DNA of 64,000 nucleotides, from sequence record PP430345; one strand, written 5' to 3'. The translations under genes and the position numbers were made by a program. This stretch comes from Escherichia phage vB_EcoM-LTH01. Below are positions 6,055 to 62,287 of this stretch, one piece after another. Within the stretch, counting starts at the first letter, position 1. Every line of letters begins with the position of its first letter. Under the pieces are notes generated by a model, which worked only from the letters and a program-made list of their open reading frames with translations, was not told the origin of the DNA and ran no database searches.

Positions 6055-6084
6055 TAAAGGCGCTCATTTGAGCGCCTTTTCTTT
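6055..6084. terminator. bidirectional rho-independent terminator between convergent genes
   Basis: Hairpin AGGCGCTC-ATTT-GAGCGCCT flanked by A-run on one side and T-run on the other. Confidence 0.6.
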
Positions 6085-7328: not shown

Positions 7329-7353
7329 AAAAAGAAAAGGCCCCGAAGGGCCT
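7329..7353 (-). terminator. intrinsic terminator (GGCCC-CGAA-GGGCC hairpin + U-tract)
   Basis: Hairpin 7338-7353 followed on minus strand by TTTTCTTTT. Confidence 0.5.
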
Positions 7354-7356
7354 CTA

Positions 7357-10300: not shown

Positions 10301-10590
10301 GGGGCATACCACCAAGTTACGTTGCCATTTACATCGGTAAAGGCATACAACTGATTGAATTCAATAACTGAACTTCCATTTCTCCACGGTAACGGTGGAG
10401 TTTTGAAATAAAAGTTATCAATTATTGCTTTACGTACACTCGGGATTAAGCTACCATCTTCTGTAACAGCTTGTTCAGTTGCTGTGCCGTTGACGATCAA
10501 ATGAAGTCTTCGAGAGTCTTCGATGATCTGATCAACAGCAAGGTCTGCTTCGGTGCTTACCAGTGCCAATATATCAGTATTAGACGACAC
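7357..10590 (-). CDS. large tail fiber / tailspike-like protein (1077 aa)
   Basis: Repetitive T/G/N/V-rich segments (recurring ...GxDISPxSV... units); position in tail module. Confidence 0.6.
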   Translation of the reverse strand: MSSNTDILALVSTEADLAVDQIIEDSRRLHLIVNGTATEQAVTEDGSLIPSVRKAIIDNFYFKTPPLPWRNGSSVIEFNQLYAFTDVNGNVTWWYAPGATTSTPVVMRDSPINDGKFRPFFDKGNIQETYAPILSPVFRGNPTVPLAAEGDSSFTIANTAWVSREIEKVRGEVLEESKGEFQNIIVADDASLKDLYVSGETIFTGDRIAALDAELSLKRLRMTGTDAEIAFEQNGVPPQAGLTKRTNIKPFQVTTGVVDSDNITAREIKVGNTSVSTNSLDVDGFMQGDYLHLEGNANNAEDRPQLIVDGIAEINTLRVTNTIEGLKADVEGLDINPNSIVVERTAEVKGNTTLGADLAVAGNTVLKNVRIEGTLTGAGIGVDGKDISPRNVSATSVTVAESLNITGPTTASGDVTVNNLTVNGTLRADIDFGTSAVEFQDLTVTNKATIKDLEITGNLTGVTVSIDGEAISPSSVTTTGNIDVGNNMRVRGDITLDGELSIQSLDTGDITAAAIDGASLSVSGDITAGTTSTTTVNNLVVTGTTTGITVTGNVDGQDILPSSVETTSVEASESVTTANLTATGETQVNNLTITGTVTGFEVDLTGRDIQVNTLTVTRGSTFDEVTANNITNNQKITTVDLQVTGNLTNANGEQFFANVTGQDILPNSVQSATSVRTKTLRVEETSLLEGAVTLNDGLTITAGNITSVQGQASFNDVQVFGSLLDANGNALGTAESINGKDISPRSVTAQVEIQTTAIVATGQAEVGSLISTGQVMAGSLEVSGIGNIDQVITDDIRAGKVTSGNTVITRTVGSSDPALEVRGPGEIQGDLNVTGTVTGNIDLSSQDVNVASMTSTGTVSALSIESRTSVTGLSGTFGEDYEGAPTYGITSLSGANINKNLRVGGNLTVVGNISGNIDLSGKAIEPASLSTTTATLTTANITDLTVTGQFNIPTVPLNVQSLSSENAISASKFSTTPKEVSTTSSSYIPDGSTSIYNVNVINDVEVKAPIGLLSSGKGESVFLFFEQDGTGGHAVTFGSEFVVHGTETINTDANTVSVVNMVYRGKGPLIDVFITRR

Positions 10591-10602: not shown

Positions 10603-10863
10603 TTACTTGTTTTCGTCGGAAGGGTCTTTATCTTTTTTCAAAGATAATCCCCAACGGAGGTTGATGAGGTCACTCAACAGGTGTGGGGCCACTACCGTAG
10701 GGGCATAAAGCCATACGTACCATTCAGGCAATGTATTGTTGAATCCATACCAGAGAAAGACGGCAGTCATAGCAGCCATACCTACGTTAGACCAAAACTT
10801 CGTATGAGAAGCTTTATCTGGTTCCACCGCAGAGGTCACTAGGTCTTTGAGAAATTTTAACAT
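10603..10863 (-). CDS. small membrane protein (holin-like topology; function unknown)
   Basis: One hydrophobic helix plus charged C-terminus. Confidence 0.35.
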   Translation of the reverse strand: MLKFLKDLVTSAVEPDKASHTKFWSNVGMAAMTAVFLWYGFNNTLPEWYVWLYAPTVVAPHLLSDLINLRWGLSLKKDKDPSDENK

Positions 10864-11673: not shown

Positions 11674-11712
11674 AAGTCTCCATAGTCGGGCCGAAGCCCG
11701 ACTCATCTAAGG

Positions 11713-19562: not shown

Positions 19563-19587
19563 AATAAAAAAGGGGGCCGAAGCCCCC
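19563..19587 (-). terminator. intrinsic terminator (GGGGGC-CGAA-GCCCCC + U-tract)
   Basis: Perfect 6-bp GC stem with CGAA loop, followed on minus strand by TTTTTTATT. Confidence 0.55.
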
Positions 19588-19592
19588 TGTAA

Positions 19593-22016
19593 TTATTGGT
19601 TACCACCCTGAGTGAGCAGGTTGATATTGAATCCGTTCTCTTCATCCACAATTGCACGGATATATTGACGAATCTCTCCACTCTTGATCTCAACGGTGAT
19701 CTTACCTTCAGGTGGTGCTGCTGGAGTTTCCAGAGGAAATCCGCTAGGGCGAATACCAGATGGAGTCGAGATAGTGTTAGGATCTACAGTTATGTCACGA
19801 GAGCCACCAAACAACTCTCTGAACACATCAGTTAACCCGACAGGTTGTGGAGTTACACCATATTGCTGCTGGAAAGCTGTTGCGTCAAGCCCTGCTCCAG
19901 CCAATCGGCTCTCTCCACTTTGGATAAAGCGGTCATTGATTTCTGACCCTGCTGAATAAAGCGTACCAAGGCCAAAAAGATTACCAAGCTTACCAAGTTG
20001 ACTGAATCTTCCAGCTACACTTGTCTTACCTGGGGTAGTTGCGCCACCAGAGGCTGTGGTGTTTGCACCAGTTGTGGTTTTTCCACCCGTAGCTAAATCT
20101 CCACCAAGGGTTCCACGAATCTCCTTAAGTGCACCTTTTAATCCTGCAATCTTAGCTAGGATATTAAACACTTTAGTTAGACCGCCGAGGAACAATCCGA
20201 TACCAAGGAGATAAGAACCCCAATCAAACACTTGACGAAGAGTATCACCTTCAACACCTATTTTCTTGAAGTAATAAGACACCACACGATCCAAAAGGAC
20301 AAGGTTATCATGTATTTCAAGAACCATGTCTGTAAATCCTTCAATTACGTTACCGAAGAATCTACCGATGGTGCTTGCAACGTTACCATTACTTGATAGG
20401 ATTGTAGCTAAGTTATTGAAAACTCTTGTCAGTTGTTCACCAAAGCCACCTTGGAATATTCTGTTTTGAAACTCTGCAAAAGTCTGAGTTAAACGCTGGT
20501 AAGCAACACGGTTACTTTCCAAAGCTTTATCCAGTGCACCACCTTTGTTAGCAGCCTCTGCATAGTATTTACCAACCAAAGGTATGATCTTGGAGGCTTT
20601 CAATTCACCATCTTCCATCAACTTCAACAATTTTGCAATGTCGATAGAGGTGTCGCCGAATGCTTCTTGAGTTGCTTTCAAGAATACCTGTAAAGAACCA
20701 GGAATTGCTTCAGCCAACTGACCCTTTAGTTCTTCAGCCATTACTTGACCTTTACCAAGGATCTGTTGAATTGCTGTAATGCCACGCTGATATCTTACAG
20801 GATCGACCTGAAGTGCGGTGGAATATTCAGAAAATGCACTAAATAATTCGTCTGTTTGAGATTTACTAATAACACCATCAGCAGAGATCGCTAACTGGGT
20901 AAATCCCTGCGATGCAGTTTTCAGATCCAAACCTAAACGGTATGCTTCGTCACGAACAAACTTAACACGCTGACCAGCTTCTTCTGCCGAATCAGAGATC
21001 AACAGAGATGTTGCATTGATTCCTTCGAAGAATTGACCTTGACGAGTTATTGATGCACCTGCTGAGAAAACTCCATATGCGGCAGTAGCACTTACCAAGC
21101 TGGAACGAACATCTTTAAGTGTGGAAGAGAAAGATCCAGCACTTGACTGTGCAGCACGGAATTGTCTTTCTAGCGCCTGTATGCTTTGACGATACTGCCC
21201 AGATGATAACGTACCAGCACGAAATTGTCTATTAAGATCTTCAATCCCACGACCTTCCGAGTCACGACCCAAAGCACCTGCATAACCACGACCATATCGA
21301 GAGGATAGACGAATACGTTGTTGTGCTGTAACATCATCAATACGGGCAGCAGCACGAGCAGCGCGGACACGTTCACGTTCCTGTTCTTGAGTTTGTTGCT
21401 TCTGCATTCTCTCTTTGATACGAGAACTACGTTGCATCGCTCTGTTTTGTGCAGCAATTAAATCAGGGTTGAATCGGCTATTAGGATCTCCAACAATACC
21501 TGACCCTGGCTCTCTGTTACCGCGAGATAATAATTGATTTGCAGCTTCCACACGTTGGATGTTGAAAGGCGGTAAAGGTGTCGCTGTACGGTTTGCAGAT
21601 CTTGCAGCAGCACGGGCAGCTTTCTCCTGTTCCTGATAGAACTTTCTCATCTCAGCAGAACCAGGGGATGCAGCCGTCAGGCTTTTAACCTGTTGTCGTA
21701 TTCTTGCAGCAGAAACCTTCTGAATTGCCTCTTTTGCCTTGGCTTCTTTCTTTGCCAGAGCAATACGATAATCAGTGGCCTTCTTCTCCTCACGCTTCCG
21801 AGTTTCTTCCAGACGTTTACTGACTAGTCTCATTTCACGAGCGGATTGTTTATAAGCCTCAGCAGGAGAATTCTTTCCGGCAGCGGTAGCCTCTGTTGAA
21901 GCCTTTTTCCATTCGTTGGAGAGTTTTCGGATCTCCTCACGAGCTTTTCGATAGGAACCTTTGTCAGTTTCAAATATGACTCGGTTCTTTGTTGTTGCAA
22001 TTACTTCAACAGCCAT
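19593..22016 (-). CDS. tail tape measure protein
   Basis: 807 aa, Ala/Arg/Gln-rich coiled-coil N-terminus, Gly-rich hydrophobic segment, canonical position after chaperone pair. Confidence 0.75.
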   Translation of the reverse strand: MAVEVIATTKNRVIFETDKGSYRKAREEIRKLSNEWKKASTEATAAGKNSPAEAYKQSAREMRLVSKRLEETRKREEKKATDYRIALAKKEAKAKEAIQKVSAARIRQQVKSLTAASPGSAEMRKFYQEQEKAARAAARSANRTATPLPPFNIQRVEAANQLLSRGNREPGSGIVGDPNSRFNPDLIAAQNRAMQRSSRIKERMQKQQTQEQERERVRAARAAARIDDVTAQQRIRLSSRYGRGYAGALGRDSEGRGIEDLNRQFRAGTLSSGQYRQSIQALERQFRAAQSSAGSFSSTLKDVRSSLVSATAAYGVFSAGASITRQGQFFEGINATSLLISDSAEEAGQRVKFVRDEAYRLGLDLKTASQGFTQLAISADGVISKSQTDELFSAFSEYSTALQVDPVRYQRGITAIQQILGKGQVMAEELKGQLAEAIPGSLQVFLKATQEAFGDTSIDIAKLLKLMEDGELKASKIIPLVGKYYAEAANKGGALDKALESNRVAYQRLTQTFAEFQNRIFQGGFGEQLTRVFNNLATILSSNGNVASTIGRFFGNVIEGFTDMVLEIHDNLVLLDRVVSYYFKKIGVEGDTLRQVFDWGSYLLGIGLFLGGLTKVFNILAKIAGLKGALKEIRGTLGGDLATGGKTTTGANTTASGGATTPGKTSVAGRFSQLGKLGNLFGLGTLYSAGSEINDRFIQSGESRLAGAGLDATAFQQQYGVTPQPVGLTDVFRELFGGSRDITVDPNTISTPSGIRPSGFPLETPAAPPEGKITVEIKSGEIRQYIRAIVDEENGFNINLLTQGGNQ

Positions 22017-24791: not shown

Positions 24792-24902
24792 GTTTATCCT
24801 CTGCTTCTAGACGATTATTGACTAGCACCGGAAGTGCCAATTGATTAGGGGCCGAAGCCCCTCATTTGTCACTGATAAGCGTGGGCCTATCAATAACCGG
24901 AT

Positions 24903-27120: not shown

Positions 27121-27146
27121 AAAATAAAGCCACCCGAAGGTGGCCT
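27121..27146 (-). terminator. intrinsic terminator (GCCACC-CGAA-GGTGGC + U-tract)
   Basis: Hairpin 27128-27146 followed on minus strand by TTTATTTT. Confidence 0.5.
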
Positions 27147-27153
27147 TATACAT

Positions 27154-28851
27154 TTAATAGACATTACCGGTTTGAATAGTTTGTGTAGCTCCGTCAAAAA
27201 TACAAATAGAATATATTGACAATCTCCCACCTGTGTCACTTGAAGAAGATTTATTCATCGTTGCTGTTATCCAAACCCTCCAACAACTTCCGTCGTTATT
27301 GTCTGTAACAACAAGGTGCATTGTATCTGGATACCCTACAGTCGCCGACGCATTTTCAACATAAGCAACAGTATTGCTCAATGTTGCATTACTTACCCTC
27401 CCTGTTTTTATTCTATTAATATCCGTGTAGTTAGCCGTCAAGTACCATCCAAAATTTATTTGTCTGGAAGAAGACGATGTTCCTGCGGAGAAACCTACCT
27501 TAACTTGACTAGCCAAACCTGCGGCGTCAATAATAAGCCTTACATTACCATTATTAGTACCGGGTAAAGGTAACCACATTTTTTTAGTCCCAGTAGGTGT
27601 ATTATAAACCCCAGCTAAGGTAGGAGTAGCAGCTGGACCTACATCTCCTTTATCCCCTTTGTCCCCTTTCTCGCCCTTAGGACCTTGAGGGCCTATCATA
27701 CCTGCCGGACCTTGTGGTCCAATAGCACCTGTCTCCCCCTGAGGGCCAGTCGGACCCCTGATACCCTGAGGGCCAGCTATGCCTTGAGTGCCTTGAGGGC
27801 CTGCTGGGCCGATATCTCCTTTATCTCCCTTAGGACCTTGCGGACCCTCTGGGCCAGTTGGTCCTGCATCACCCTTCACTCCCTGGGGACCTTGTGGACC
27901 TTGAGGACCAGTCGGACCTATATTACCTTGAGGGCCAGTTGGACCCGTTGCACCAATTGGACCTTGAGGACCTTCAGGGCCTGCTGGACCTTCAGCGCCT
28001 ATATCCCCTTTAGGTCCTTGTGGTCCCATAGGACCCTGAGGTCCTTCAGCACCTTGATCACCTTTGGGACCAACAGCGCCTGCAATCCCCTGAATACCCT
28101 GGGGACCCTGAGGGCCTGTTGGCCCTTGTTCCCCCCTTGCACCTTGATCACCTTTTGGACCCTGCGGTCCTTGTGGACCTGTTGGCCCTTGAGATCCTTC
28201 TAAGGCTAAGATAACCCAATCTTCATTTGTACCAGGTTCTGAGCCAATACTGGCAGAACTGGCAAAATACGTTGAACCATTGTAAGAAACCGAATCATTT
28301 TCAGAATAAGATTCCTCAGCGTCCCAAGTACCTTTGAAAGTCAAACCAGCAGGGCCAACCTCACCTTTTTCCCCTTTAGGGCCTGTAAGTCCGATCGGTC
28401 CTTGCGGACCTTCTGCTCCAGTCTCACCCTTAGGACCTTCAGGGCCAACAAGTCCCTGAGGACCTTGCTCACCTTTTTGTCCTTGTGGCCCTTGCGGACC
28501 CATAGGTCCTTGAGGGCCAACAATACCAGCTGCCCCCGCTATACCTGCGGGACCTTGTTCTCCTTTATCACCCTTAGGACCTGTAAGGCCACGGACACCT
28601 TCATCTCCTTTGGGACCAATAGGACCTTGCGGTCCAATATCCCCTTTTGGACCCTGAGGGCCAGCAGGTCCAACTGGACCTTGTTCTCCCTGAGGTCCGC
28701 GAGGACCAGTGTTACCAACATCACCTTGTTCTCCGACACGGGAAAACAAATCTTTAAACAAATACCTCTTTCTTGCATTAAGATCGTAAACGGCAGTCCC
28801 GAAATAAACCCCGCTGTGATCTCCCGTAATACCTTTAGCTGTAGAAGGCAT
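27154..28851 (-). CDS. collagen-like triple-helix repeat protein with globular C-terminal domain (565 aa)
   Basis: Long uninterrupted Gly-X-Y tracts ([23 protein letters not shown]...), then ~170-aa non-collagenous C-terminus. Confidence 0.75.
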
Positions 28852-29502: not shown

Positions 29503-29547
29503 ATTAATTCCTTTCTGAAAGAGGGGGCCTAAGCCCCCATTTAAAAA

Positions 29548-34071: not shown

Positions 34072-34102
34072 ATAATAAAAAAGGCCACCCGAAGGTGACC
34101 TT
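34072..34102 (-). terminator. intrinsic terminator after major capsid gene
   Basis: GGCCACC-CGAA-GGTGACC hairpin (one mismatch) followed on minus strand by TTTTTTATTATG. Confidence 0.55.
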
Positions 34103-34118
34103 TAATCAGTTATTAAGA

Positions 34119-35114
34119 TTATTCAAACTTACCAACAGACTTAACTACCAGTTCAGGACGGTTGTTAACAGTCAGGAAGGAAGTTTCAGATTCGATCTTC
34201 GCTTCACGCAGGTACTGAGATTCTTTGAAGAATACATACAGTTCCTGAGCTACTTGGTTAGCACCTTCCAGAGTGTCGCTCGGCGCGTAATAGATTTCGA
34301 ACATACGATCGATACCACGAGGGAAGATGTATGCTTCACCAGCAGGGATGTTACCGGAAATGTCTTCGATGAACAGGATGTTCTTGTGTTCGAAGATACG
34401 GTTGTTGGCATTACCGCCCAGACGACGACGCAGGACTTCCTGAGTAGAAGGGTACTGAGAATATGCACCAGTTACCTGCGGGTGAGCGATCAGAGCAGAG
34501 AACCACTGACGGGATGCCATAACGACGATCTCGTAGTTGTCACCTTGGTCACCAGCGTAATCGATGATGTGTGCACGAGCTTCAGCTTCCAGCACTTCAA
34601 TCGGGTCAATAGCCAGAGCGGTGAAGTCAACGTCAGCAGTCTGCTGGGTTACACCCCAAACATCGTAGTAGTCGTAATCACAAACCGGATCGTTAGGGGA
34701 CCAGGAAGTACCTTTCAGAGCAGCGTACATTGCCTTGGATTTCAGAACCGCATGACTACGACGGATACGGGCCAAGTGACGAGCCACTTCAGCTTCAACA
34801 GTTGCCGGAGCGTTGTCAGTACCGAATTCACGGAAGTTCTGAATGTCTGCACGGTCGATAGAACGGTCAAGAGGGAAGAACGGGATGTTCAGGTTTACGA
34901 TCTTTTTACGATCATTACCCAGGTGCTGACGAACGCTACCACGCTGTACAGCATTGATCTGACCAGCACCGTCATCACGACGTTCGATTTTAGCGATAGT
35001 AGTACGACCAAAGTTCTCAGTGAACAGGTTCATGCTTTGAAGCAGGGTATCAACACGCGGCAGAGTAGAGATCAGGCCAGTGTAATCCAGGATTTGAAAA
35101 TCACCATTTTGCAT
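34119..35114 (-). CDS. major capsid protein (lambda gpE-like family)
   Basis: 331 aa; order decoration-like then capsid as in lambda D-E; followed by strong terminator; family by size/order and loose sequence resemblance. Confidence 0.65.
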   Translation of the reverse strand: MQNGDFQILDYTGLISTLPRVDTLLQSMNLFTENFGRTTIAKIERRDDGAGQINAVQRGSVRQHLGNDRKKIVNLNIPFFPLDRSIDRADIQNFREFGTDNAPATVEAEVARHLARIRRSHAVLKSKAMYAALKGTSWSPNDPVCDYDYYDVWGVTQQTADVDFTALAIDPIEVLEAEARAHIIDYAGDQGDNYEIVVMASRQWFSALIAHPQVTGAYSQYPSTQEVLRRRLGGNANNRIFEHKNILFIEDISGNIPAGEAYIFPRGIDRMFEIYYAPSDTLEGANQVAQELYVFFKESQYLREAKIESETSFLTVNNRPELVVKSVGKFE

Positions 35115-44767: not shown

Positions 44768-44795
44768 ATCTTACATGACTATCCCAACATGTCAA
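44768..44795 (-). promoter_or_regulatory. putative leftward early promoter (TTGACA-16-TAAGAT)
   Basis: Read on minus strand upstream of the 44739 start. Confidence 0.35.
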
Positions 44796-44879
44796 ACCCT
44801 TTATGCCCGTTTAGGCATACAATACTATATTAGATTTCCCTGGCTCGAAGCCTCTCGCCAAACCCTTTATCATTATAAT

Positions 44880-44929
44880 TTATTCATTTCATTCATAAAT
44901 TATATAATAATTATTCATTTCATTCATAA
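44880..44929. repeat. two copies of 19-bp direct repeat TTATTCATTTCATTCATAA separated by 12 bp
   Basis: Exact copies at 44880-44898 and 44911-44929 in AT-rich intergenic DNA. Confidence 0.7.
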
Positions 44930-44953
44930 TTATTATTAAAAACAATAAAAACA

Positions 44954-45022
44954 AGATCTTTTATAAGATCTTTTTATATATATGATCTATAGATCTACAG
45001 ATCTTAAAGGATCTTTTATAGA
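44954..45022. repeat. GATC-dense repeat block (6 GATC in 60 bp; AGATCTTTTATA-like unit x3)
   Basis: AGATCT at 44954, 44966, 44991, 44999; GATC also at 44984 and 45010. Confidence 0.7.
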
Positions 45023-45052
45023 TTTTATACTAAATTTTTTAAATTTAAAGTC

Positions 45053-45081
45053 TTGACATGGAGTTTTTACATAGGTATAGT
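45053..45081 (+). promoter_or_regulatory. putative rightward early promoter (TTGACA-17-TATAGT)
   Basis: Hexamers read upstream of the 45117 gene. Confidence 0.45.
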
Positions 45082-45116
45082 GACTCTACTTTAACAAACA
45101 ACAGGTTATCTTTATA

Positions 45117-45398
45117 ATGATTTTGAATAATAAATGTAAAAAGTTATCAGAGAATGAATTAAGTCATCTTCAAGCTATGAGAGAAGCTTGGCATTCAGCA
45201 AAAGCTGGACTGAAAGTATGTGTTGTGACTGTTTACGAATGTGACTGGTACACCATTTTGGGGAACTATTACGGAGTAATGAATCAGTATGTGGAAAAAG
45301 GCTTGATTTATCATCGTGTGGAAGATAGTATGAATCCTGACTTACAGCTTGTGGCTGAAGATTTGGATAATGTACTAATAACTTTGGAGATGATCTAA
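45117..45398 (+). CDS. hypothetical early protein
   Basis: ORF track; first gene after divergent promoter. Confidence 0.45.
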   Translation: MILNNKCKKLSENELSHLQAMREAWHSAKAGLKVCVVTVYECDWYTILGNYYGVMNQYVEKGLIYHRVEDSMNPDLQLVAEDLDNVLITLEMI

Positions 45399-51781: not shown

Positions 51782-52024
51782 ATGAATATTAATTTTAACG
51801 ACGCAACTTACGAAAAACTGAAATACCTGGCTACTCTGGAAGGTCGATCAGTTGCAGCGTATATCTCCCAAAAGATGGATGAGCTTACAGGTCAACTGGT
51901 AAATGTTGAATATTCACTGAATGATATTCCAGAAGGTACGCCTCTTGCTCATATGGATCTAACTCCAAAGCCACGAATCGTAGATCGTGACACTGATGAA
52001 CAAGATGGTTACGCAAATTGGTAA
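51782..52024 (+). CDS. possible ribbon-helix-helix DNA-binding protein
   Basis: N-terminal NDATYEKLKYLATLEGRSVAAYISQKM resembles RHH strand-helix-helix pattern; AAGGAGA RBS. Confidence 0.35.
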   Translation: MNINFNDATYEKLKYLATLEGRSVAAYISQKMDELTGQLVNVEYSLNDIPEGTPLAHMDLTPKPRIVDRDTDEQDGYANW

Positions 52025-52033
52025 AAATTTTTA

Positions 52034-52060
52034 AGCCGCCCTTCGGGGCGGTTTTTCTTT
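52034..52060 (+). terminator. rho-independent terminator (CCGCCC-TTCG-GGGCGG + T-tract)
   Basis: GC stem with TTCG tetraloop followed by TTTTTCTTT. Confidence 0.7.
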
Positions 52061-52069
52061 ATCTATCTC

Positions 52070-52097
52070 TTGACACCTGCCTCCAGTTCTGTATAAT
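52070..52097 (+). promoter_or_regulatory. strong sigma70-consensus promoter (TTGACA-16-TATAAT)
   Basis: Perfect -35 at 52070-52075 and perfect -10 at 52092-52097, directly after terminator. Confidence 0.6.
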
Positions 52098-52126
52098 ACC
52101 TATATCAACCAACAACAGGAGATAAA

Positions 52127-52315
52127 ATGAATATTAAACTTACAAAAGAAATGATTGCCGTGTTTATGCAAATTTCGTCAGTTCGTGATGGGATGAGTAA
52201 AGAATCTAAGAGTATTAAGTTACCTGAAGTTGACTCTCTCGTAACACTTCTTGAAAATGTTGGAGCACTTATTCTTCGTGAAATGACCAAGCAAGATTCT
52301 ACTACAGAGGGGTGA
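52127..52315 (+). CDS. hypothetical protein
   Basis: ORF track; AGGAGA RBS. Confidence 0.45.
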
Positions 52316-52319
52316 TCAA

Positions 52320-52784
52320 TTGAAAACTTTTAAAGAACGTATGGAATTGTTAGATAAAGCTTTGTCTCGTGAAACTCCAGAGAGTTTGTTTGAAAAACTA
52401 CAGTCATACGGAAATGCTGATTACTCTTTCGAAGATATGATGGATGAGATTCCTGAGATCTGTTGGCAAACATGTTATTGGAATAACGATCAAAAAGTTC
52501 AACGTACTATTGTATGTGCAGCTAATCGGTTTAAATTGAAAGATGGTGGAACTCTGATTATCCCTGGATCTCGTCATTACTCTAAGGATATGGCAGAAGT
52601 GCTTGATGTGGTGGGGCCACAATTAGTATCTCAGCAAGTTTGTGGAGACGATCAAGGCTTTATCGACCAATACGGTAATTATTGGAATCGTGAAGAAGCA
52701 ATGATTATTGCAACTTATGCCGGACAGGTACGTATCGAACGTGGTGGAAGTGAGAAAGAACTTTACTCGGAGGACCTTTACTGA
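52320..52784 (+). CDS. hypothetical protein (TTG start)
   Basis: ORF track; GAGGGG RBS. Confidence 0.4.
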
Positions 52785-53056
52785 TGAACACTAAACAGCT
52801 TACTATTGAAGCTTTGCAGCTTAAGATAAAACAAATCGAGTATCTTAACCAGATGATGAAAGAGGGTTGGGGTACGTATACTAATCAGCCTGCCTGGGAG
52901 GCTTTAGGTCATCCATACCTGAACGATGCTTGTAATGGTAATATTCCTCGTGATGGGTTGAAACCTTTCTTACGGGATATGTACATTAAGGTTAACGAAG
53001 AGATCATTGATTCCCTTTACTATCAGATCAGGAAACTCGAAAATGAGAGTAATTGA
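52784..53056 (+). CDS. hypothetical protein
   Basis: ORF track; ATG overlaps upstream stop. Confidence 0.45.
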   Translation: MNTKQLTIEALQLKIKQIEYLNQMMKEGWGTYTNQPAWEALGHPYLNDACNGNIPRDGLKPFLRDMYIKVNEEIIDSLYYQIRKLENESN

Positions 53057-53243
53057 TTCTAAAAGTGATTATTTCAATTCTTTAAATGATAAGGACAAGA
53101 CTAAGATTCGTCACTTCATCGTAGAGATGGGATACACCAACTCTGAAGATTTGAAAGAGCATATTCTCGAATGTTACGTAGCTAAGAAATTTTCTTTGAC
53201 AAGTAAGTGTTTAAATGAGATTATACAGCACTACACGGCTTAA
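53043..53243 (+). CDS. hypothetical protein
   Basis: ORF-track frame 53007-53243 trimmed to ATG 53043. Confidence 0.35.
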   Translation: MRVIDSKSDYFNSLNDKDKTKIRHFIVEMGYTNSEDLKEHILECYVAKKFSLTSKCLNEIIQHYTA

Positions 53244-53256
53244 GGGGGATAGTTGA

Positions 53257-53589
53257 ATGGGTAAATTAGTTGTTTTGGAAGTTCGGGCAGCAGACTTAGC
53301 AAAGGCAGTTGGTTTCTTTAAATTTGAAGATTCTGAATTTCGTGAGCGATGGGGACTTAACTTACCATCCAAAATCTGTGGTCTTTTTAAGGCAAGTCAG
53401 ATCGAAGACCTGATTATTAAAAAGATTGTTAATCTTGATGGTGTGGAATTTAATAATATTGTCGTTTTCGACGAAGACTTTGATTGGTCTGCCTATTGCA
53501 GCCTTTCAGATTGGATTGCTAAATTCCCGATGGCAGAAAACTGTTCTGTTTCAATTCCTGGATCTTTACTGGAGATTGTGAATGTATAA
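53257..53589 (+). CDS. hypothetical protein
   Basis: ORF track; GGGGGA RBS. Confidence 0.45.
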   Translation: MGKLVVLEVRAADLAKAVGFFKFEDSEFRERWGLNLPSKICGLFKASQIEDLIIKKIVNLDGVEFNNIVVFDEDFDWSAYCSLSDWIAKFPMAENCSVSIPGSLLEIVNV

Positions 53590-53818
53590 TCAAGATATCG
53601 AAACGATTAAAGAAAGGCTTAAGTTGATGACAGCTTCGCCCAATGTAACGACTAAGGATGTTGATCTTATTCGTCAAACACTTCATGTAATAAATTCATT
53701 AGAAGAGGAGATCAAGTCTCTCAATGTTGATGTAGGTTGTTACAAACATGCTTATGTTGCGTTTGCTGACATTACGAAGATTATGGCTCGGGAGTTAGAA
53801 AAATCGAAACATTCTTAG
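53582..53818 (+). CDS. hypothetical protein
   Basis: ORF track; overlaps upstream by 8 nt. Confidence 0.4.
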   Translation: MYNQDIETIKERLKLMTASPNVTTKDVDLIRQTLHVINSLEEEIKSLNVDVGCYKHAYVAFADITKIMARELEKSKHS

Positions 53819-54506: not shown

Positions 54507-55010
54507 ATGAAATTAACTATCGAATTAATCCCAAGCACAGCTTGGGACAACAACCTTCGGTCTTACCTTACCCAATCTGGTTGGGACAAAGTTCGTCGAA
54601 AGTGCTATCAAGAAGCAAACTACCACTGTGAGGTTTGTGGAGGTCAAGGTGGAAATGGACGTAAGCATCCATGTGAAGCTCACGAGGTATGGGACTTTGT
54701 TGATGGGGAAGTTGTGTTAAGGGGTGTGATCGCTTTATGTCCTCCTTGCCACGAAGTAAAACATATCGGTCGTGCTCAAGCGACTGGTAACATGACTCGT
54801 GCAATACGACACTTTATGAAAGTTAACGGTGTTGACAAGAAGGCTGCTGAAGAATACATTAGGCAAGCTGCGGCATTGTGGCGAGAAAGAAGTAAGCAAG
54901 AGTGGTCTTTGAATATCGATTATCTGTATGAATACATGGGTAAAGATTTCAAATTCAAGCGACCAGTAAAAGAAGTTAAAGAAGACGAAGATTACGGCGA
55001 AGCATTTTAA
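54507..55010 (+). CDS. HNH-family endonuclease-like protein (possible free-standing homing endonuclease)
   Basis: CEVCG...H...AHEVWDF...CPPCHEVKH has the Cys-pair/His spacing of HNH nucleases; ATGA overlap with NADAR gene. Confidence 0.45.
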   Translation: MKLTIELIPSTAWDNNLRSYLTQSGWDKVRRKCYQEANYHCEVCGGQGGNGRKHPCEAHEVWDFVDGEVVLRGVIALCPPCHEVKHIGRAQATGNMTRAIRHFMKVNGVDKKAAEEYIRQAAALWRERSKQEWSLNIDYLYEYMGKDFKFKRPVKEVKEDEDYGEAF

Positions 55011-55023
55011 TAAGGAGAGGTCT

Positions 55024-56133
55024 ATGGGTTATCCGGTAATTGAAGATTGGTCAGGTATTATCGAAGACAACGTGGTTGTTGCACTTGATCTCGATCAAAC
55101 TTGCTATGTTGCTGCGGCTGGTGCAGAAAAAAGAACGATCATCGCTCGACACAAGGAGACTGGAAGGGAAAAAGAATTTCGCAACAAAACAGAGTTTTGG
55201 GGTCGCCAAAAGAATGTTGTTGGTGGATGGTTAAAAGACCAAAACATTAATATGGAAGCAAAAGCGGTTGCTCGCGGAAAAGAATTTACTCCGTGGACCC
55301 GTGATGATTTCGAGATCATTGAAAAGCAAACTCCAGAACCAGTGGAGAACTGTCTTCACTTATTGAAGATTAAGATCAATGCTATTCTTGAACACGTAGG
55401 ATCAGCAAACGGGCTTGGTGTTTTAGGTGGGAGTGGTAACTTCCGTCTTGCACTCCCGACCCCTGAGATCTATAAGGGTAACCGTGAAGATACTTTACGT
55501 CCTCTGTTGCTTGGGGAGACTCGTCGATATGTTCAGCAGAAGTATGGTGCGATCATTGTGGATGGTATTGAGGCAGATGATTATTTATCGATCCTTGGTT
55601 ACAAAGGTTATTTAAATTATCGAAAGACTGGAAAGTTCAGTCATATTGTGGCATCCTTTGATAAGGATCAGGTTCAGGTTCCTTCTCTGTTGTTTAACAC
55701 GATGCGTGATTCAACAGAGCGTACTTGGAAACATCCTGAACTCTGGTTGATTGATGATTCTATGGGTGAGATCTGGATGGAGTCTGGAAAGGTAAAAGGC
55801 TGGGGTAAGAAATTCTTCGGTTACCAAATGCTATTTGGTGATGCAGCGGATAACGTTAAACCATATCAAACCTTCGAGGGTCTTCGCTTTGGTGAAACAT
55901 CGGCTTTCCAGGTCATCTCCCCTTGTGCAGACGAGAAGAGTATGTGGTTAGCTATTATTGATCAGTATAAGAAGTGGTTTCCTGAGGGTGTTGAATATAC
56001 AGACCACTTAGGGAATCATCGTAAGTTTTCAGCGGGTCAGTGGGCTTCTGTCATTTTCCAGTGTGTTTATATGAAGCGCACAGAAAATGATAAGACAACA
56101 TTATCCTCAACTTTAAAACGGGTAGGTATTTAA
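55024..56133 (+). CDS. putative nuclease (5'-3' exonuclease/FEN-like motif)
   Basis: GAIIVDGIEADDYLSILGY resembles the GxEADD motif of 5' nucleases; N-terminal VVVALDLDQT acidic cluster; weak. Confidence 0.3.
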   Translation: MGYPVIEDWSGIIEDNVVVALDLDQTCYVAAAGAEKRTIIARHKETGREKEFRNKTEFWGRQKNVVGGWLKDQNINMEAKAVARGKEFTPWTRDDFEIIEKQTPEPVENCLHLLKIKINAILEHVGSANGLGVLGGSGNFRLALPTPEIYKGNREDTLRPLLLGETRRYVQQKYGAIIVDGIEADDYLSILGYKGYLNYRKTGKFSHIVASFDKDQVQVPSLLFNTMRDSTERTWKHPELWLIDDSMGEIWMESGKVKGWGKKFFGYQMLFGDAADNVKPYQTFEGLRFGETSAFQVISPCADEKSMWLAIIDQYKKWFPEGVEYTDHLGNHRKFSAGQWASVIFQCVYMKRTENDKTTLSSTLKRVGI

Positions 56134-58391: not shown

Positions 58392-59486
58392 GTGACTAAT
58401 AAAGTAACTTTTACTGTTGAACAAGTTCTGCAACTGATGAAACACGGTTTGTCTCAGCGCGAAGTAGCTCGCCAATTGGGTAAAGAGTCTCAGGAATCTA
58501 CGGTTCGTAATATGATCCGTCGTGAAATTCAAAAGAATGATGTTTCAAGTGTTAAGGAACTCCTTGAAATCACCCCAGCTTATGAAGATTACGAAAACTA
58601 TGCAGAATATATGCAGCAGAAAGAGTCAGGTGGGGAGTCTGTCGCTAAGATTGAAAAAGATTTCATTGAAAAGATCAAAGAGCAGAACCCAGGTGCTAAA
58701 GTTTTCCTTGGTGACATTGAAACATCTCCTTCTATAGCATATTCGTTTGGACGATTTAAACAGTTCATTGCACCGAAGCAGGTAATTATGGAACCGTACA
58801 TGCTGACATTCGCTGGTAAGTGGCTGCACAACCCATCGATCTTCAGCCGGAAGCTGACTGACTATCCAGAAGAGTTTGCACGAGATCACCAGTCAGATCG
58901 CAAGTTGATCGAAGACCTGTGGAAAGTTCTGGACGAATGTGATATCTTTATCGCACATAATGCTCGCTTTGACCGTGGTTGGGCAAATCAGCGTTTCGCA
59001 TATTACGGTATGCAACCGCCAAGCCCCTACATCACGATCGATACATTGGCTGCACTGAAAGAAGCTTTCTCTCTTCCTTCAAATGCACTTGAAGCAGCAT
59101 GTAACTATTTTGAACTTGATAGTCGTAAGCTGTCGCATGAAGGTTTCAGTCTGTGGCGACGTTGTGTTGAAGGTGACCCAACCGCATTTGAAGAGATGGA
59201 AGAATATAACATTGGTGATATTCCAACGCTGGAAGAACTGTATCTGACTGTACGACCTTTCATGCGGAAACATCCGAACATTGCATTGTTCCACAAAGAT
59301 CAATCAACTATGCGTTGTGTTCGTTGTGGTAGTGACGACTTAGTTATTGAGGAAGGTAAGTCAGCAGTAACGTTCTTGTCTAAGTTCAAGGTGTATCGTT
59401 GCCAGGAATGTGGTTCTTGTGCACGAGATCGTCAGAATGTTCGCGAGAAGGCAGCGATGAAGAAAACGCTGGCAAACATTCTGTAA
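58392..59486 (+). CDS. DEDD-type 3'-5' exonuclease with N-terminal HTH-like region
   Basis: Exo I-like FLGDIETSP and Exo III-like HNARFDRGW; C-terminal CVRCG...CQECG zinc-ribbon-like. Confidence 0.55.
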   Translation: MTNKVTFTVEQVLQLMKHGLSQREVARQLGKESQESTVRNMIRREIQKNDVSSVKELLEITPAYEDYENYAEYMQQKESGGESVAKIEKDFIEKIKEQNPGAKVFLGDIETSPSIAYSFGRFKQFIAPKQVIMEPYMLTFAGKWLHNPSIFSRKLTDYPEEFARDHQSDRKLIEDLWKVLDECDIFIAHNARFDRGWANQRFAYYGMQPPSPYITIDTLAALKEAFSLPSNALEAACNYFELDSRKLSHEGFSLWRRCVEGDPTAFEEMEEYNIGDIPTLEELYLTVRPFMRKHPNIALFHKDQSTMRCVRCGSDDLVIEEGKSAVTFLSKFKVYRCQECGSCARDRQNVREKAAMKKTLANIL

Positions 59487-59495
59487 TTTTATTTA

Positions 59496-59521
59496 ACCGC
59501 CCTTCGGGGCGGTTTTTTTTA
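59496..59521 (+). terminator. rho-independent terminator (near-copy of the 52034 terminator)
   Basis: ACCGCCC-TTCG-GGGCGGT followed by TTTTTTTTATT. Confidence 0.7.
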
Positions 59522-59545
59522 TTGTGAAAATGAGAGGAGATTAGT

Positions 59546-60184
59546 ATGAAATTCATTAATTTAAATGGTCCTGCTTTTTCTGGTAAAGATGCTCTTGCTA
59601 AAGAGATTGCAGAGTTAGTTACGGTAGATAATAACGTAGGTATTCATGTTGAGTTTAAAGGTTCCCTTATCGATCTAGCTATTCGTATTGCAGGTATTAA
59701 TCGTGAACTGTGGGATGCACTTTACCACCGCGATTATAAAGAAGTACCTCAACCATATTTTAATGTTGCAGGTAAACAAGTGTCCCCACGTAACTGGCTG
59801 ATCCATATCTCTGAGAATGTTGCGAAGCCTCTCTTCGGAGAAGAATACTTTGGTGTTGCTCTTGCCAAGCGTGTTAAAGATATTGCGAAAGGTATGGAAA
59901 TGAATGGTTATACCTGTACGTTTATTAGCTCTGATGGTGGATTTGTTCATGAAAGTGTTCCGGTAGTGAAGGCGGTAAATGGCGATTACACATTGATCCG
60001 TCTGCACCGTACTGATCCACGAACTGGTAATAAATTAACTTTTGAAGGCGATTCTCGTAATTATATTTACTCTGAGAATTTTCCTGAAAGTGCACGACCT
60101 AGAGATTTCGACGTTGAAAACGTTAATGGTAAGCTAACTGAAACTGCAAAATTAATTATCAAACTCTCAGAGGGGAAAGAGTAA
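59546..60184 (+). CDS. P-loop kinase, deoxynucleoside monophosphate kinase-like
   Basis: N-terminus MKFINLNGPAFSGKDALAKEI (P-loop) resembles T4 dNMP kinase N-terminus as I recall it; GAGAGGAGA RBS. Confidence 0.45.
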   Translation: MKFINLNGPAFSGKDALAKEIAELVTVDNNVGIHVEFKGSLIDLAIRIAGINRELWDALYHRDYKEVPQPYFNVAGKQVSPRNWLIHISENVAKPLFGEEYFGVALAKRVKDIAKGMEMNGYTCTFISSDGGFVHESVPVVKAVNGDYTLIRLHRTDPRTGNKLTFEGDSRNYIYSENFPESARPRDFDVENVNGKLTETAKLIIKLSEGKE

Positions 60185-60790
60185 ATGAAAAAAGCGATCA
60201 TTGTGGATGTTGACTTAACTATCGTTGATTCTGGATGGCCTTGGTTGCACTGGATGGAAAGCATCTATAATATGGAGGCTGATTCTGACCTTATGGAAAA
60301 GGACATTAGCGAGAATGGGTATTTTGATTACAATCTTTCTCGGTACTTTCCTGATCGCTGTAAGAAGGCTATCCCTCCATATGATTATTGGGAAGACCCT
60401 TTCTTGTATGATAAGATGTTCCCTATTGCGGGAGCAGTAGAGGCAATCAATAAGTTACATGCCGCAGGATTCCCTATTCGGTTTGTGTCTTATTGCAAGA
60501 AAGGTCATTTTAGTAGTAAAGTTCGTTTCTTGAAGCGACACTTCCCTAACCTGGATCTTGAAAATGGAACAGACGGGTGTGGTTTTTATGCTACAAAGTA
60601 CAAGGCTGGAGTTTCGGGTGATTACATCATTGATGATCGTAATAAATTTTTGAATCAATTTAGTGACAAGGTAGTAAAAATCAAGTATGATACACCCTTC
60701 AGTCAAGACGAAGAAGAGATCGGGTGTTACGACTTGGTAACTAGCGATTGGGCATCAATTGCTGAATTTATTTTGGAGAGAGAATCTTGA
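60185..60790 (+). CDS. HAD-superfamily hydrolase, likely 5'(3')-deoxyribonucleotidase
   Basis: HAD motif I in AIIVDVDLTIVDS; start overlaps stop of kinase gene. Confidence 0.45.
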   Translation: MKKAIIVDVDLTIVDSGWPWLHWMESIYNMEADSDLMEKDISENGYFDYNLSRYFPDRCKKAIPPYDYWEDPFLYDKMFPIAGAVEAINKLHAAGFPIRFVSYCKKGHFSSKVRFLKRHFPNLDLENGTDGCGFYATKYKAGVSGDYIIDDRNKFLNQFSDKVVKIKYDTPFSQDEEEIGCYDLVTSDWASIAEFILERES

Positions 60791-60972
60791 GATGTGGTAA
60801 AGGAAGATGGGTAGTTAGGGAAGGTGATTATGTAGAGATCCTTTCTAAAGAAAAGGGAAGCCTTTTGGCTTCCTTCAAAGTAAAAAGCGACATGTGCAAA
60901 GAAATGTTTGACATGTATCTTCACATTATGTACGATATTAGCGTTGATTACAAAATCAGGAAAATAAAATGA
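60787..60972 (+). CDS. hypothetical protein
   Basis: ORF track. Confidence 0.35.
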   Translation: MRCGKGRWVVREGDYVEILSKEKGSLLASFKVKSDMCKEMFDMYLHIMYDISVDYKIRKIK

Positions 60973-61175
60973 ATATAGTATTTTTCGAAGGTGAAGATTG
61001 GGAAGGTATTTATGTTGACGGTAAGTTAGTGTTAGAAGGCCACAGGGTAGACATTAAGGAATTTATTTCTTACTTGGCAAAGAAAAGACTTGCTAACTTA
61101 GAGATTGTAAGGGAAAATGATTTGAGTAGTCCAATTGAAGATTACTTGCCACAATTTGTTGAAGATTTAAATTAA
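60969..61175 (+). CDS. hypothetical protein
   Basis: ORF track. Confidence 0.4.
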   Translation: MNIVFFEGEDWEGIYVDGKLVLEGHRVDIKEFISYLAKKRLANLEIVRENDLSSPIEDYLPQFVEDLN

Positions 61176-61191
61176 TAGAGAGGAGATTTGA

Positions 61192-62220
61192 ATGTCCATG
61201 ATTGAAGCCCGTATTATTGCAGATTCTGTTGGCTATCGTAGTAAAGCTCGTATCACCACGTTTGAATTGACCTATCCTCGATTCATTCACTCAGAACTTA
61301 TGACACACCGACTGTTTAGTAGAAATGCAATGTCTTCTCGTGCAGTGCCGATCAAGACAATGGTTAAACTGATCCGTGAAAATATGGCAATGCCTGTTCG
61401 ATTTGGTGCTAACCAACCTGGTATGCAGGATAAAGGAACAGAACATGATGGTAAAGTATGGTATGATTGGGTGGAAGATACAAGTGGCGTGTGTCATGAA
61501 CTGTACTGTACCGGACGAGAAGCTTGGGCGAAGGCTGCGGAAAATGCCTGTGAATGGGCAGAACGTTTCGAGGCAGCGGGGTTCCATAAGCAGATTGCTA
61601 ACCGATTGATCGAGCCGTTCCAGATGATGAAGACTATCGTTACAGCAACAGAATTTGAAAACTTCTTCTGGTTACGTGTTGATGCAGACGCAGACCCAAC
61701 GATCGAAGTATTGGCTAAGAAAATGCACGAAGCTTATAAAGCTTCTACTCCAGAATGGTTACAACCTGGTGTGTGGCATACGCCTTACGTAGACCATTGT
61801 TTCGACTCTGGACCTTTGGGTGATGGGCATATTTTTGCAGGGTATTGTGTACAGGATGAAGATGGAAATCACATTATGCTGTCCGAAGAAGAGGCTTTGT
61901 CTATCTCTTCCTCTTGTTGTGGACAGGTAAGTTATCGTCGTCTTAACAATACGAAAGATAAGGCTTTGGATATTTATGCCAAGCTCGTATCCGGTAAAAA
62001 GGTCCACGCTTCTCCGTTCGAGCATCAGGCGAAGGAGATAGAAGAGACATTTGAACCCGATGAAGTACAAGACGGTTACAATATGGTAAATGTCCCTTGG
62101 TGTTCAGCATCTTGGGAAGAGGGTATTACTCACGTAGATCGTGACGGTAACTTCTGGAGTGGAAACCTGAAAGGGTTTGTTCAACATCGTCAGTTAATTC
62201 CTGGTCATGTTGCAAAATAA
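61192..62220 (+). CDS. ThyX-like (flavin-dependent thymidylate synthase fold) protein, divergent, with C-terminal extension
   Basis: FELTYPRFIHSELMTHRLFSRNAMSSR aligns with the ThyX block F..K.PIFV.RQ..RHR.......S, but first Arg of RHR is Thr; 342 aa is ~100 aa longer than typical ThyX. Confidence 0.45.
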   Translation: MSMIEARIIADSVGYRSKARITTFELTYPRFIHSELMTHRLFSRNAMSSRAVPIKTMVKLIRENMAMPVRFGANQPGMQDKGTEHDGKVWYDWVEDTSGVCHELYCTGREAWAKAAENACEWAERFEAAGFHKQIANRLIEPFQMMKTIVTATEFENFFWLRVDADADPTIEVLAKKMHEAYKASTPEWLQPGVWHTPYVDHCFDSGPLGDGHIFAGYCVQDEDGNHIMLSEEEALSISSSCCGQVSYRRLNNTKDKALDIYAKLVSGKKVHASPFEHQAKEIEETFEPDEVQDGYNMVNVPWCSASWEEGITHVDRDGNFWSGNLKGFVQHRQLIPGHVAK

Positions 62221-62287
62221 GTGTTGACATTGGTTAGTTAATTTTATATTATTATCGGCGCTGGGGCATATTGCCCCTCTTTTTAAA

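Follow-up and report, generated by a model that had tools for sequence, protein, structure and literature searches.

In the 52-kb region of the DNA analysed here, a stretch of 64,000 nucleotides of Escherichia phage vB_EcoM-LTH01 (record PP430345; hereafter the window), a compact cassette lies between two small early genes, in which a GC-rich UUCG hairpin and a T-tract are followed by a promoter of perfect sigma70 consensus, a short leader and a start codon. Our preferred reading, to which a probability of roughly 80% is assigned, is that the cassette comprises a functional intrinsic terminator and a strong host-type early promoter, and that the same UUCG design recurs behind the exonuclease gene and behind major structural genes. 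From the anatomy, statistics, orientation, conservation and synteny of these elements we infer that transcripts would actually end and begin at them, and how efficiently.

The source is a Vequintavirinae (rV5-like) coliphage, as identified from the nucleotide matches of a 4-kb probe around the 52-kb site and from the annotation of those matches. The probe aligned over its full length with A5-4 at 95% identity, and also with A73, W70, A7_1 and UPEC06 (92-95%); all five are unclassified Vequintavirinae and their records are devoid of regulatory annotation. Long open reading frames divide the window into a structural or late module on the minus strand (6.1-44.7 kb) and an early and DNA-metabolism module on the plus strand (45.1 kb to the end), the latter containing ligase, exonuclease, thymidylate synthase and many small ORFs. 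Five tRNA genes are located at 41.2-42.7 kb; an Rfam scan of the whole 64-kb window at gathering thresholds returned tRNAs only, all within 41.2-42.8 kb, with no hit at the hairpins.

Anatomy of the cassette at 52 kb

The elements of the cassette and the genes on its two sides are as follows.

51782..52024, plus strand: 80-aa early gene upstream of the cassette (from the ORF list; stop codon TAA 52022-52024)
52033..52054, plus strand: hairpin AAG-CCGCCC-UUCG-GGGCGG-UUU (core stem-loop 52036-52051)
52052..52062, plus strand: T-tract TTTTTCTTTAT, written also TTTTTCTTT(AT), the U-tract of the terminator
52070..52097, plus strand: sigma70-type early promoter TTGACA-16-TATAAT (-35 at 52070-52075, -10 at 52092-52097)
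52104..52129, plus strand: predicted 5' leader with conserved motif ATCAACCAAC (SD AGGAG 52117-52121, ATG 52127-52129)
52127..53818, plus strand: variable cargo block behind the promoter (62-aa ORF, arn.3/arn.2/arn.1 homologues at 52320-53243, two small ORFs)

The combination of a GC hairpin and a U-tract is the defining signal of intrinsic termination. The sequence at 52033 bears all its hallmarks, namely a GC hairpin with a short loop, a U-tract and a sense position after a stop codon: a 6-bp GC stem with a C(UUCG)G loop and an A-U extension runs into the U-tract, and the hairpin is intergenic, in sense orientation, and starts 9 nt after the TAA of the 80-aa gene, with which the first rightward unit closes. 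Its dG is -15.5 kcal/mol in extended form and -12.0 for the core, the tested UUCG hairpins ranging from -11 to -13 kcal/mol for cores and from -13 to -16 for extended stems. The terminator at 52036 obtained a tail score nT of 4.81 and a d-score of 42.8 (rank 4 of 16 candidates), the d-score being approximate as the d'Aubenton-Carafa form was used with ViennaRNA energies. The 16-mer stem-loop CCGCCCTTCGGGGCGG occurs exactly twice in the window, at 52036 and 59497, both on the plus strand, a duplication for which shuffles give an expectation of 0.08 even with three mismatches allowed. Such a terminator would end transcripts arriving from the divergent early promoters near 45.05 kb and from internal promoters downstream of those.

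Nine bases after the T-tract lies the promoter, which agrees with the consensus at 12 of 12 hexamer positions over a 16-bp spacer and is the only perfect match in the 64 kb, 0.04 being expected from dinucleotide shuffles. The sequence-only reading had described a strong terminator followed by a perfect TTGACA-16-TATAAT promoter at 52034-52097, and the sequence is indeed as described. A TG directly precedes the -10 hexamer, whose end is 29 nt from the ATG; transcription is predicted to start at A52104, leaving a leader of 22 nt up to the ATG at 52127. As a match to the host sigma70 consensus, the promoter would start a new transcript at about 52104, and the short conserved leader with its SD would then drive the variable small early genes, that is, the 62-aa ORF and the homologues of T-even arn.3 to arn.1. 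The T-tract at 52052-52062 spans -52 to -42 of this promoter, which is the position of an UP element, and by that placement it could conceivably act in an UP-like manner. The 16-bp spacer is one base below the optimum, which counts against our preferred reading.

Conservation of the cassette and the mosaic boundary beside it

When a 539-nt probe was searched by blastn, only query positions 255-349, corresponding to window 52036-52130, aligned outside the window's clade, and these comprise precisely the stem-loop, T-tract, promoter, leader and ATG. The segment is 80-87% identical by blastn in Certrevirus phages of Cronobacter, Pectobacterium, Enterobacter, Klebsiella and Pantoea (77-82% in the 12-genome alignment described below), where it occupies the syntenic place a few genes after DNA ligase. 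In the orthologous upstream gene, nucleotide identity is about 64% in the conserved part and 40-46% in the 3' part; the 95-bp cassette is thus better conserved than the neighbouring genes.

A footprint alignment of 12 genomes, drawn from the window's clade and Certrevirus, resolved this conservation by element: invariant positions numbered 12/12 in the stem, 10/11 in the T-tract, 5/6 in the -35, 5/6 in the -10 and 8/10 in the leader motif ATCAA-CAAC, and only 4/16 in the promoter spacer, while the loop appears as TTCG, TTAG or TCCG. This footprint is strong indirect evidence, taken from sequence comparison, that terminator and promoter are both under selection. The orthologous sites of both early terminators are annotated as 'terminator' in phiTE (JQ015307), as is the orthologue of the 52033 site in P7_Pc (ON712643). 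The promoter-plus-leader part is present in a single copy per genome and the stem-loop alone at 3-6 places per genome in this subfamily; the idea of the cassette as a dispersed repeat was therefore rejected for the promoter-plus-leader part.

No compensatory covariation was found at either early stem, since the stem positions are invariant at both sites, and this conservation could in principle reflect a constraint at the DNA level. The CCGCCC...GGGCGG palindrome might then be a protein-binding site, for instance an operator through which the 80-aa protein controls the adjacent promoter, an explanation to which we accord very little credence. Its appeal lies in a stem that shows neither variation nor compensatory change at two sites and in more than one genus, in the ability of terminator palindromes to double as transcription-factor sites that a 2026 preprint reports (10.64898/2026.08.19.745784), and in an N-terminus of the 80-aa protein that looks ribbon-helix-helix-like by eye. 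The last of these is unsupported and was set aside: Pfam returned no domains in the small proteins flanking the cassette, and no DNA-binding domain in the 80-aa protein. The gene for this protein is orthologous to CR3_242 (66% amino-acid identity over 64 aa) and phiTE_181, and its product matches phrog_12907. Against an operator, moreover, the same hairpin is a generic terminator in many unrelated phages, the loop tolerates change, the U-tract is conserved at 10 of 11 positions although irrelevant to a palindromic operator, and the second copy follows an unrelated gene with no promoter to regulate. An intrinsic terminator, as in our preferred reading, remains the better account of the stem.

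The cassette also forms the border of a slot whose gene content differs between related phages. To its left, the genes of the window and of Certrevirus are orthologous; to its right they are unrelated, and synteny resumes only at a YbiA-like gene at 53955 (54% amino-acid identity). CR3_241, the first gene after the CR3 cassette, is unrelated both to the 62-aa ORF of the window and to the arn.3 homologue, and the CR3 homologue of the 62-aa ORF is found about 0.9 kb further downstream. The content of the promoter-proximal slot differs among these phages, with at least three states: nothing in the window and UPEC06; a 301-bp insert with a 73-aa signal-peptide-like ORF in A5-4, A73 and A7_1; and several small genes in Certrevirus, of which CR3 has three (CR3_241 to CR3_239) ahead of the 62-aa ORF homologue. 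Both junctions of the 301-bp indel fall between the -10 and the ATG, in the leader/SD zone; the repeat AAGAGGATA borders the indel, and a second leader-like sequence, ATCAAC, persists as a remnant at the right junction. Further into the block, the arn.3-arn.1 homologues share about 77% nucleotide identity with the arn.3-arn.1 region of the T-even phage RB69, which indicates transfer between phage families.

These observations bring into consideration the PeSL (promoter-early stem-loop) cassettes described in the T4-type phages RB49/phi1, PST/T4 and nt-1/KVP40 (Arbiol et al. 2010, PMC2839356; Comeau et al. 2014, PMC4122927), which are defined in the Fig. 3 legend of PMC4122927 and in PMC2839356 as a stem-loop that immediately precedes an early promoter of near-consensus sigma70 type, with an SD and an ATG behind it. 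The cassette at 52 kb may tentatively be regarded as a mobile regulatory cassette of the PeSL type, in which stem-loop, promoter and leader serve as a recombination linker for inserting, deleting and swapping self-expressed modules. This would be an added evolutionary role compatible with the terminator-promoter explanation, and, at the same tentative level, it would explain the mosaic edge and the T-even genes behind it. The anatomy fits the definition part by part; the left flank is orthologous to Certrevirus with unrelated genes on the right; the slot has its three or more states; and the indel junctions between -10 and ATG lie where the crossovers of RB49 mini-circles were mapped (PMC2839356, PMC4122927). 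To this may be added the T-even cargo of arn.3 to arn.1 at about 77% identity, and the site at 59495, which is a full cassette in phiTE and SSBI34 and a 'half' cassette here. Against such a role, only one full composite exists in 64 kb and the promoter-plus-leader is single-copy per genome; of the three indels that separate the window from A5-4 in the early region, one alone is located at the cassette and another adjoins an HNH endonuclease gene; the right-hand edge of the variable block has no such cassette; and the SD repeat at the junctions is functionally constrained and may hence be coincidental. The wider proposition, that PeSL-type cassettes are not confined to T4-type phages and that a deeply conserved one acts in Vequintavirinae as a linker at a promoter-proximal cargo slot, is more doubtful still; in that view, near-consensus cassettes of this kind, being common to several coliphage families, would also mediate cross-family exchange, including the import of arn.3-arn.1. 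If it were true, a proposed mechanism of modular phage evolution would extend beyond the T4-type phages.

Reuse of the hairpin after the exonuclease gene and in the late module

The remaining predicted terminators and hairpins of the window are listed below.

59495..59520, plus strand: second early terminator, AA-CCGCCC-UUCG-GGGCGG-UU followed by T8 (T8 at 59513-59520)
7336..7355, minus strand: UUCG terminator with T-tract, after the 1077-aa tail-fibre gene (7357-10590)
11684..11703, minus strand: C(UUCG)G hairpin after the tail-fibre assembly gene (no U-tract, d-score -19.4)
19571..19588, minus strand: UUCG terminator with T-tract, after the tape-measure gene (19593-22016)
24847..24862, minus strand: C(UUCG)G hairpin in the structured 111-nt leader of the tail-sheath gene (no U-tract, d-score -27.0)
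27124..27149, minus strand: UUCG terminator with T-tract, after the 565-aa tail-fibre gene (27154-28851)
29521..29538, minus strand: GC hairpin with a UUAG loop (CTAA on the plus strand), after the 1266-aa tail-fibre gene (weak T-tail, d-score 2.5, borderline)
34080..34103, minus strand: UUCG terminator with T-tract, after the major head protein gene (34119-35114)

The near-identical terminator copy that had been noticed at 59496 proved to be the same 16-mer at 59497 followed by T8. It stands 9 nt after the stop codon (TAA 59484-59486) of the exonuclease gene (58392-59486), its stem-loop has the top d-score in the window (58.7, rank 1 of 16 candidates), and only 25 bp separate it from the next ATG. 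In eight compared genomes the stem-loop is invariant after the exonuclease gene, and a promoter is present behind this terminator in phiTE and SSBI34 only. In the window, no sigma70-like or extended -10 promoter follows 59495, and no plus-strand site with at least 9/12 matches exists within 58740-60663. The sequence TGTGAAAAT just past the T-tract was considered as a promoter element and rejected, as the resulting leader would be only about 8 nt long.

With no promoter after it, the 59495 element cannot delimit an insulated unit unless the downstream genes use read-through, and the genes at 59546-62220 must rely on such read-through. Most likely, therefore, it attenuates transcription and/or stabilises the 3' end instead of insulating; the stem-loop is reused after the exonuclease gene in such a way that the nucleotide-metabolism genes downstream would depend on read-through. 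If the element is as efficient as it scores, the expression of genes 59546-62220 is left unexplained, which speaks against our preferred reading.

The distribution of promoter-like sites bears on the same question. The pattern TTGACA-N16-18-TAnnnT occurs 16 times in the window against 3.0 expected; 10 of the 16 are plus-strand sites at 45-62.3 kb, the majority of them within genes, and 13 lie at 42.4-62.3 kb in the local sense direction; strong intergenic plus-strand promoters occur only at 45053, 52070 and 62224. As most of the 16 sites lie within coding sequence, transcription probably starts at many points. The earlier notion of an early region partitioned into insulated transcription units is hence overstated and holds only in part: 52033-52097 has the sequence hallmarks of a strong terminator followed by a strong promoter, but the many promoters, and the lack of one after 59495, do not fit such a partition.

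When a strong C(UUCG)G hairpin is defined by a stem of at least 5 with GC of at least 4, the window contains eight of them, compared to 0.08 expected from 100 dinucleotide shuffles. All eight point the same way as the genes around them and are intergenic, the one at 11684..11703 after correction of the start of the next gene. In the late module, the distance from a minus-strand stop codon to the hairpin is 1-16 nt. A U-tract is present at 52052-52062, 59513-59520, 7355, 19588, 27149 and 34103, with nT of 3.7-5.7 and d-scores above 0; the hairpins 11703>11684 and 24862>24847 have none, and with their negative d-scores they are not canonical terminators. The sequence-only reading had treated seven late sites as a single class of GC stems with CGAA tetraloops. 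GC stems are present at all seven; the loops, read on the minus (coding) strand, are UUCG, since the stems belong to a minus-strand module in which A-runs precede them on the plus strand, so that they are transcribed as C(UUCG)G hairpins with T-runs, and the CGAA reading came from the wrong strand. As a class the seven sites are heterogeneous, with four canonical UUCG terminators, two hairpins lacking a T-tract and one, at 29521, whose loop is UUAG.

That these features are chance matches to simple consensus patterns is practically discounted. Loose counts of promoter-like and terminator-like patterns do stay near shuffle expectation, but the perfect promoter (0.04 expected), the duplicated 16-mer (0.08) and the eight UUCG hairpins (against 0.08) do not, and position, orientation and cross-genus conservation argue the same way; shuffles and conservation together refute this explanation.

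The terminator behind the major head protein gene is kept well beyond the window's clade. A hairpin with a T-tract occupies this position in the window's clade, Certrevirus, Avunavirus, Seunavirus, Mydovirus, Vequintavirus and Serratia phage Kashira, the post-major-head terminator being kept in six genera. The stem sequences at this place are unrelated, which means that position and structure are conserved while the sequence turns over. Behind the tape-measure terminator (19588>19571), the late motif TGTTAAAATA is found at 19551-19542. The T-tract of the terminator 7355>7336 runs straight into the SD and ATG of the gene behind it, with no promoter in between; expression of that gene must then come from read-through RNA, and this element, like the one at 59495, would be an attenuator or 3'-end stabiliser and not an insulator. 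The late-operon terminators sit after abundantly needed structural genes, and the hairpins after the head, tape-measure and tail-fibre genes are compatible with attenuation that sets expression ratios.

C(UUCG)G hairpins are known to be exceptionally stable and abundant between T4 cistrons (Tuerk et al. 1988, PNAS). The hairpins of the window might accordingly be mainly elements of RNA stability or processing, either 3' exonuclease barriers or 5' or internal protection, instead of terminators; in that event they would set mRNA half-lives and the ratios of segments after processing. We consider this unlikely as the main function, although the hairpins 11703>11684 and 24862>24847 and the UUAG hairpin at 29538 have no proper U-tracts and are nonetheless intergenic and in sense, and the terminators at 7355 and 59495 lead directly into an SD and ATG without a promoter. 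Against it, two early and four late hairpins carry long conserved U-tracts, which a pure stability element does not need. The two roles are also not exclusive, as the hairpin that ends a transcript stabilises the resulting 3' end as well.

Relation to known systems and practical meaning

A loose search of the Vequintavirinae transcriptome and RNA-seq literature, a weak negative, yielded nothing relevant beyond in-silico promoter and terminator predictions. Such predictions comprise 13 sigma70-like early promoter sites and 27 terminators for the Certrevirus CB7 (Buttimer et al. 2020, PMC7344957) and 33 promoters and 20 terminators for rV5 (Kropinski et al. 2013, PMC3606486). The cassette at 52 kb follows the textbook layout of phage genes, and relatives already carry annotation of the orthologous elements; practical value is small and no long-standing open question hinges on it. 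The additions made here are modest, in that the composite outlasts its neighbouring genes and marks a cargo slot, PeSL-like, outside the T4-type phages. Nevertheless, the analysis provides a reliable map of early and late transcription signals for the clade of A5-4, A73, W70, A7_1 and UPEC06, otherwise unannotated, some of which are of phage-therapy interest. The interval 52.1-53.9 kb is a promoter-proximal cargo slot that tolerates foreign genes and could serve engineering, and the terminator-promoter itself is a compact, portable and apparently strong part.

With reference to the Certrevirus set, the promoter at 52070 belongs to the published class of AAAA(N3-4)TGTTGAC(N17-19)TATAAT-like sites and likewise lies among small early ORFs (PMC7344957). 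In that paper and in PMC3606486, promoters and terminators are listed apart, and the composite, its conservation and the mosaic edge are not pointed out. The hairpins resemble the C(UUCG)G hairpins of T4 and E. coli in their closing C-G pair, their short GC stem, their repetition between cistrons and their frequent combination with a U-tract; nothing essential differs, the same structural solution being found in another phage subfamily.

In promoter-coupled terminators, the termination site lies at most 35 bp (typically about 10 bp) from the start site and the DNA of the stem-loop doubles as the -35 (Fletcher et al. 2026 preprint, 10.64898/2026.08.19.745784). The cassette is similar in placing the terminator and promoter of tandem units in one short intergenic region, with a T-tract that could stimulate the promoter. 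Assignment to this class was rejected: termination is predicted at about 52058-52062, some 42-46 bp from the predicted start at about 52104, and at this distance, with the stem-loop upstream of the -35 and not within it, the elements abut without overlapping.

The closest comparison is with the PeSLs. Those cassettes belong to T4-type phages and occur in dense arrays and hyperplastic regions, whereas the present phage is one of the Vequintavirinae with a single full composite, only the stem-loop being present at 59495, and most of the indels near the 52-kb cassette are not at the cassette. On the other hand, the order of parts is the same as at 52033-52129; in both cases the cassette is placed among small non-essential early genes, with an indel junction between the -10 and the ATG, and the gene insertions and replacements between relatives next to the one at 52 kb may reflect a PeSL-like association.

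Gene cargo beside the cassette and the HNH endonuclease gene

The terminator-promoter cassette (window 52033-52129, plus strand) is followed by a slot of variable gene content, and further gene content differs within the window's own clade (A5-4, A73, W70, A7_1 and UPEC06).

52320-53243, plus strand: homologues of arn.3, arn.2 and arn.1, three small genes in succession
10631-10852 of the A5-4 sequence (L001): 73-aa ORF in a 301-bp insert after the promoter, found in A73 and A7_1 too
54507-55010: HNH homing-endonuclease gene

The arn.3-arn.1 homologues share approximately 77% nucleotide identity with RB69 and hundreds of Tevenvirinae genomes, which suggests that genes moved relatively recently between the Straboviridae and the Vequintavirinae clade of the window. 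The same slot is occupied by unrelated genes in Certrevirus phages. The 73-aa ORF of the insert is unannotated in A5-4; the N-terminus of its protein is signal-peptide-like (MSKNRALVMGFALGCLITSVLNFPEAHA...) and cysteines are present, and a Pfam search of the A5-4 protein returned no match.

A5-4 also carries an extra 495-bp gene (L001 13806-14304 versus window 55006-55024) immediately past the HNH homing-endonuclease gene. For this indel, a link with the endonuclease is more probable than one with a promoter/terminator cassette.

Boundaries of transcription units and a promoter-hairpin region

Promoters and hairpins were also found at divergent and convergent gene boundaries and after the thymidylate synthase gene.

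44768-45118, both strands: divergent early promoter region
44795>44768, minus strand: leftward promoter TTGACA-16-TAAGAT
45053 and 45091, plus strand: rightward promoters TTGACA-17-TATAGT and TTAACA-16-TATAAT, respectively
6056-6079, both strands: symmetric hairpin AAAGGCGCTCA-TTTG/CAAA-TGAGCGCCTTT with a T-tract on each strand
62224-62287, plus strand: promoter-hairpin region with a strong intergenic promoter, TTGACA-17-TATTAT (11/12)

The predicted promoters of the divergent region mark where the leftward unit of tRNAs and small ORFs gives way to the early unit, which is read rightward. The 6056-6079 hairpin, which separates the convergent genes 4859-6034 (plus) and 6083-7318 (minus), is a predicted bidirectional terminator.

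At 62224-62287 the promoter comes first and the stem-loop second: the promoter starts 4 nt past the thymidylate synthase stop codon, and the GC hairpin GGGGCATATTGCCCC, of borderline terminator score, lies about 10 nt past the -10 and is followed by TCTTTTT, the next ATG being 62288. Placed at a predicted +4 to +18 or so of the new transcript, the hairpin could conceivably serve as a 5' stabiliser, and it would also be positioned to stop transcripts arriving from upstream.

Leader, conserved element and putative promoter motif of the late module

24792-24902, minus strand: 111-nt tail-sheath gene leader, folding into three hairpins in a row
Within 34079-33995, minus strand: non-coding element of about 30 nt, AAAATAGTGTACCATT(A/G)TAAGATAGGC
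16053-16044, 19551-19542, 26503-26494, 37281-37272 and 41145-41136, all minus strand: late motif TGNTAAAATA

A 136-nt stretch including the tail-sheath leader folds with a dG of -44.6 kcal/mol, the middle hairpin being a UUCG hairpin without a T-tract; the leader may be a processing or translational control element.

The approximately 30-nt element is kept 3' of the major-head terminator in the window, Certrevirus and Serratia phage Kashira, and may be a promoter for the genes downstream of the head gene. TG immediately 5' of TAAGAT is also present in two minus-strand TTGACA promoters, 43107>43079 and 44795>44768.

Five copies of the motif TGNTAAAATA are present where 1.05 would be expected, every one of them on the minus strand. 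Three are in late intergenic regions, 20-40 nt upstream of a start codon, and two of these are directly downstream of terminators. Since those two copies sit just past terminators and the motif matches the rV5 late motif TggTAaAAtA (Kropinski et al. 2013, PMC3606486), terminator-then-promoter pairs probably exist in the late module too.
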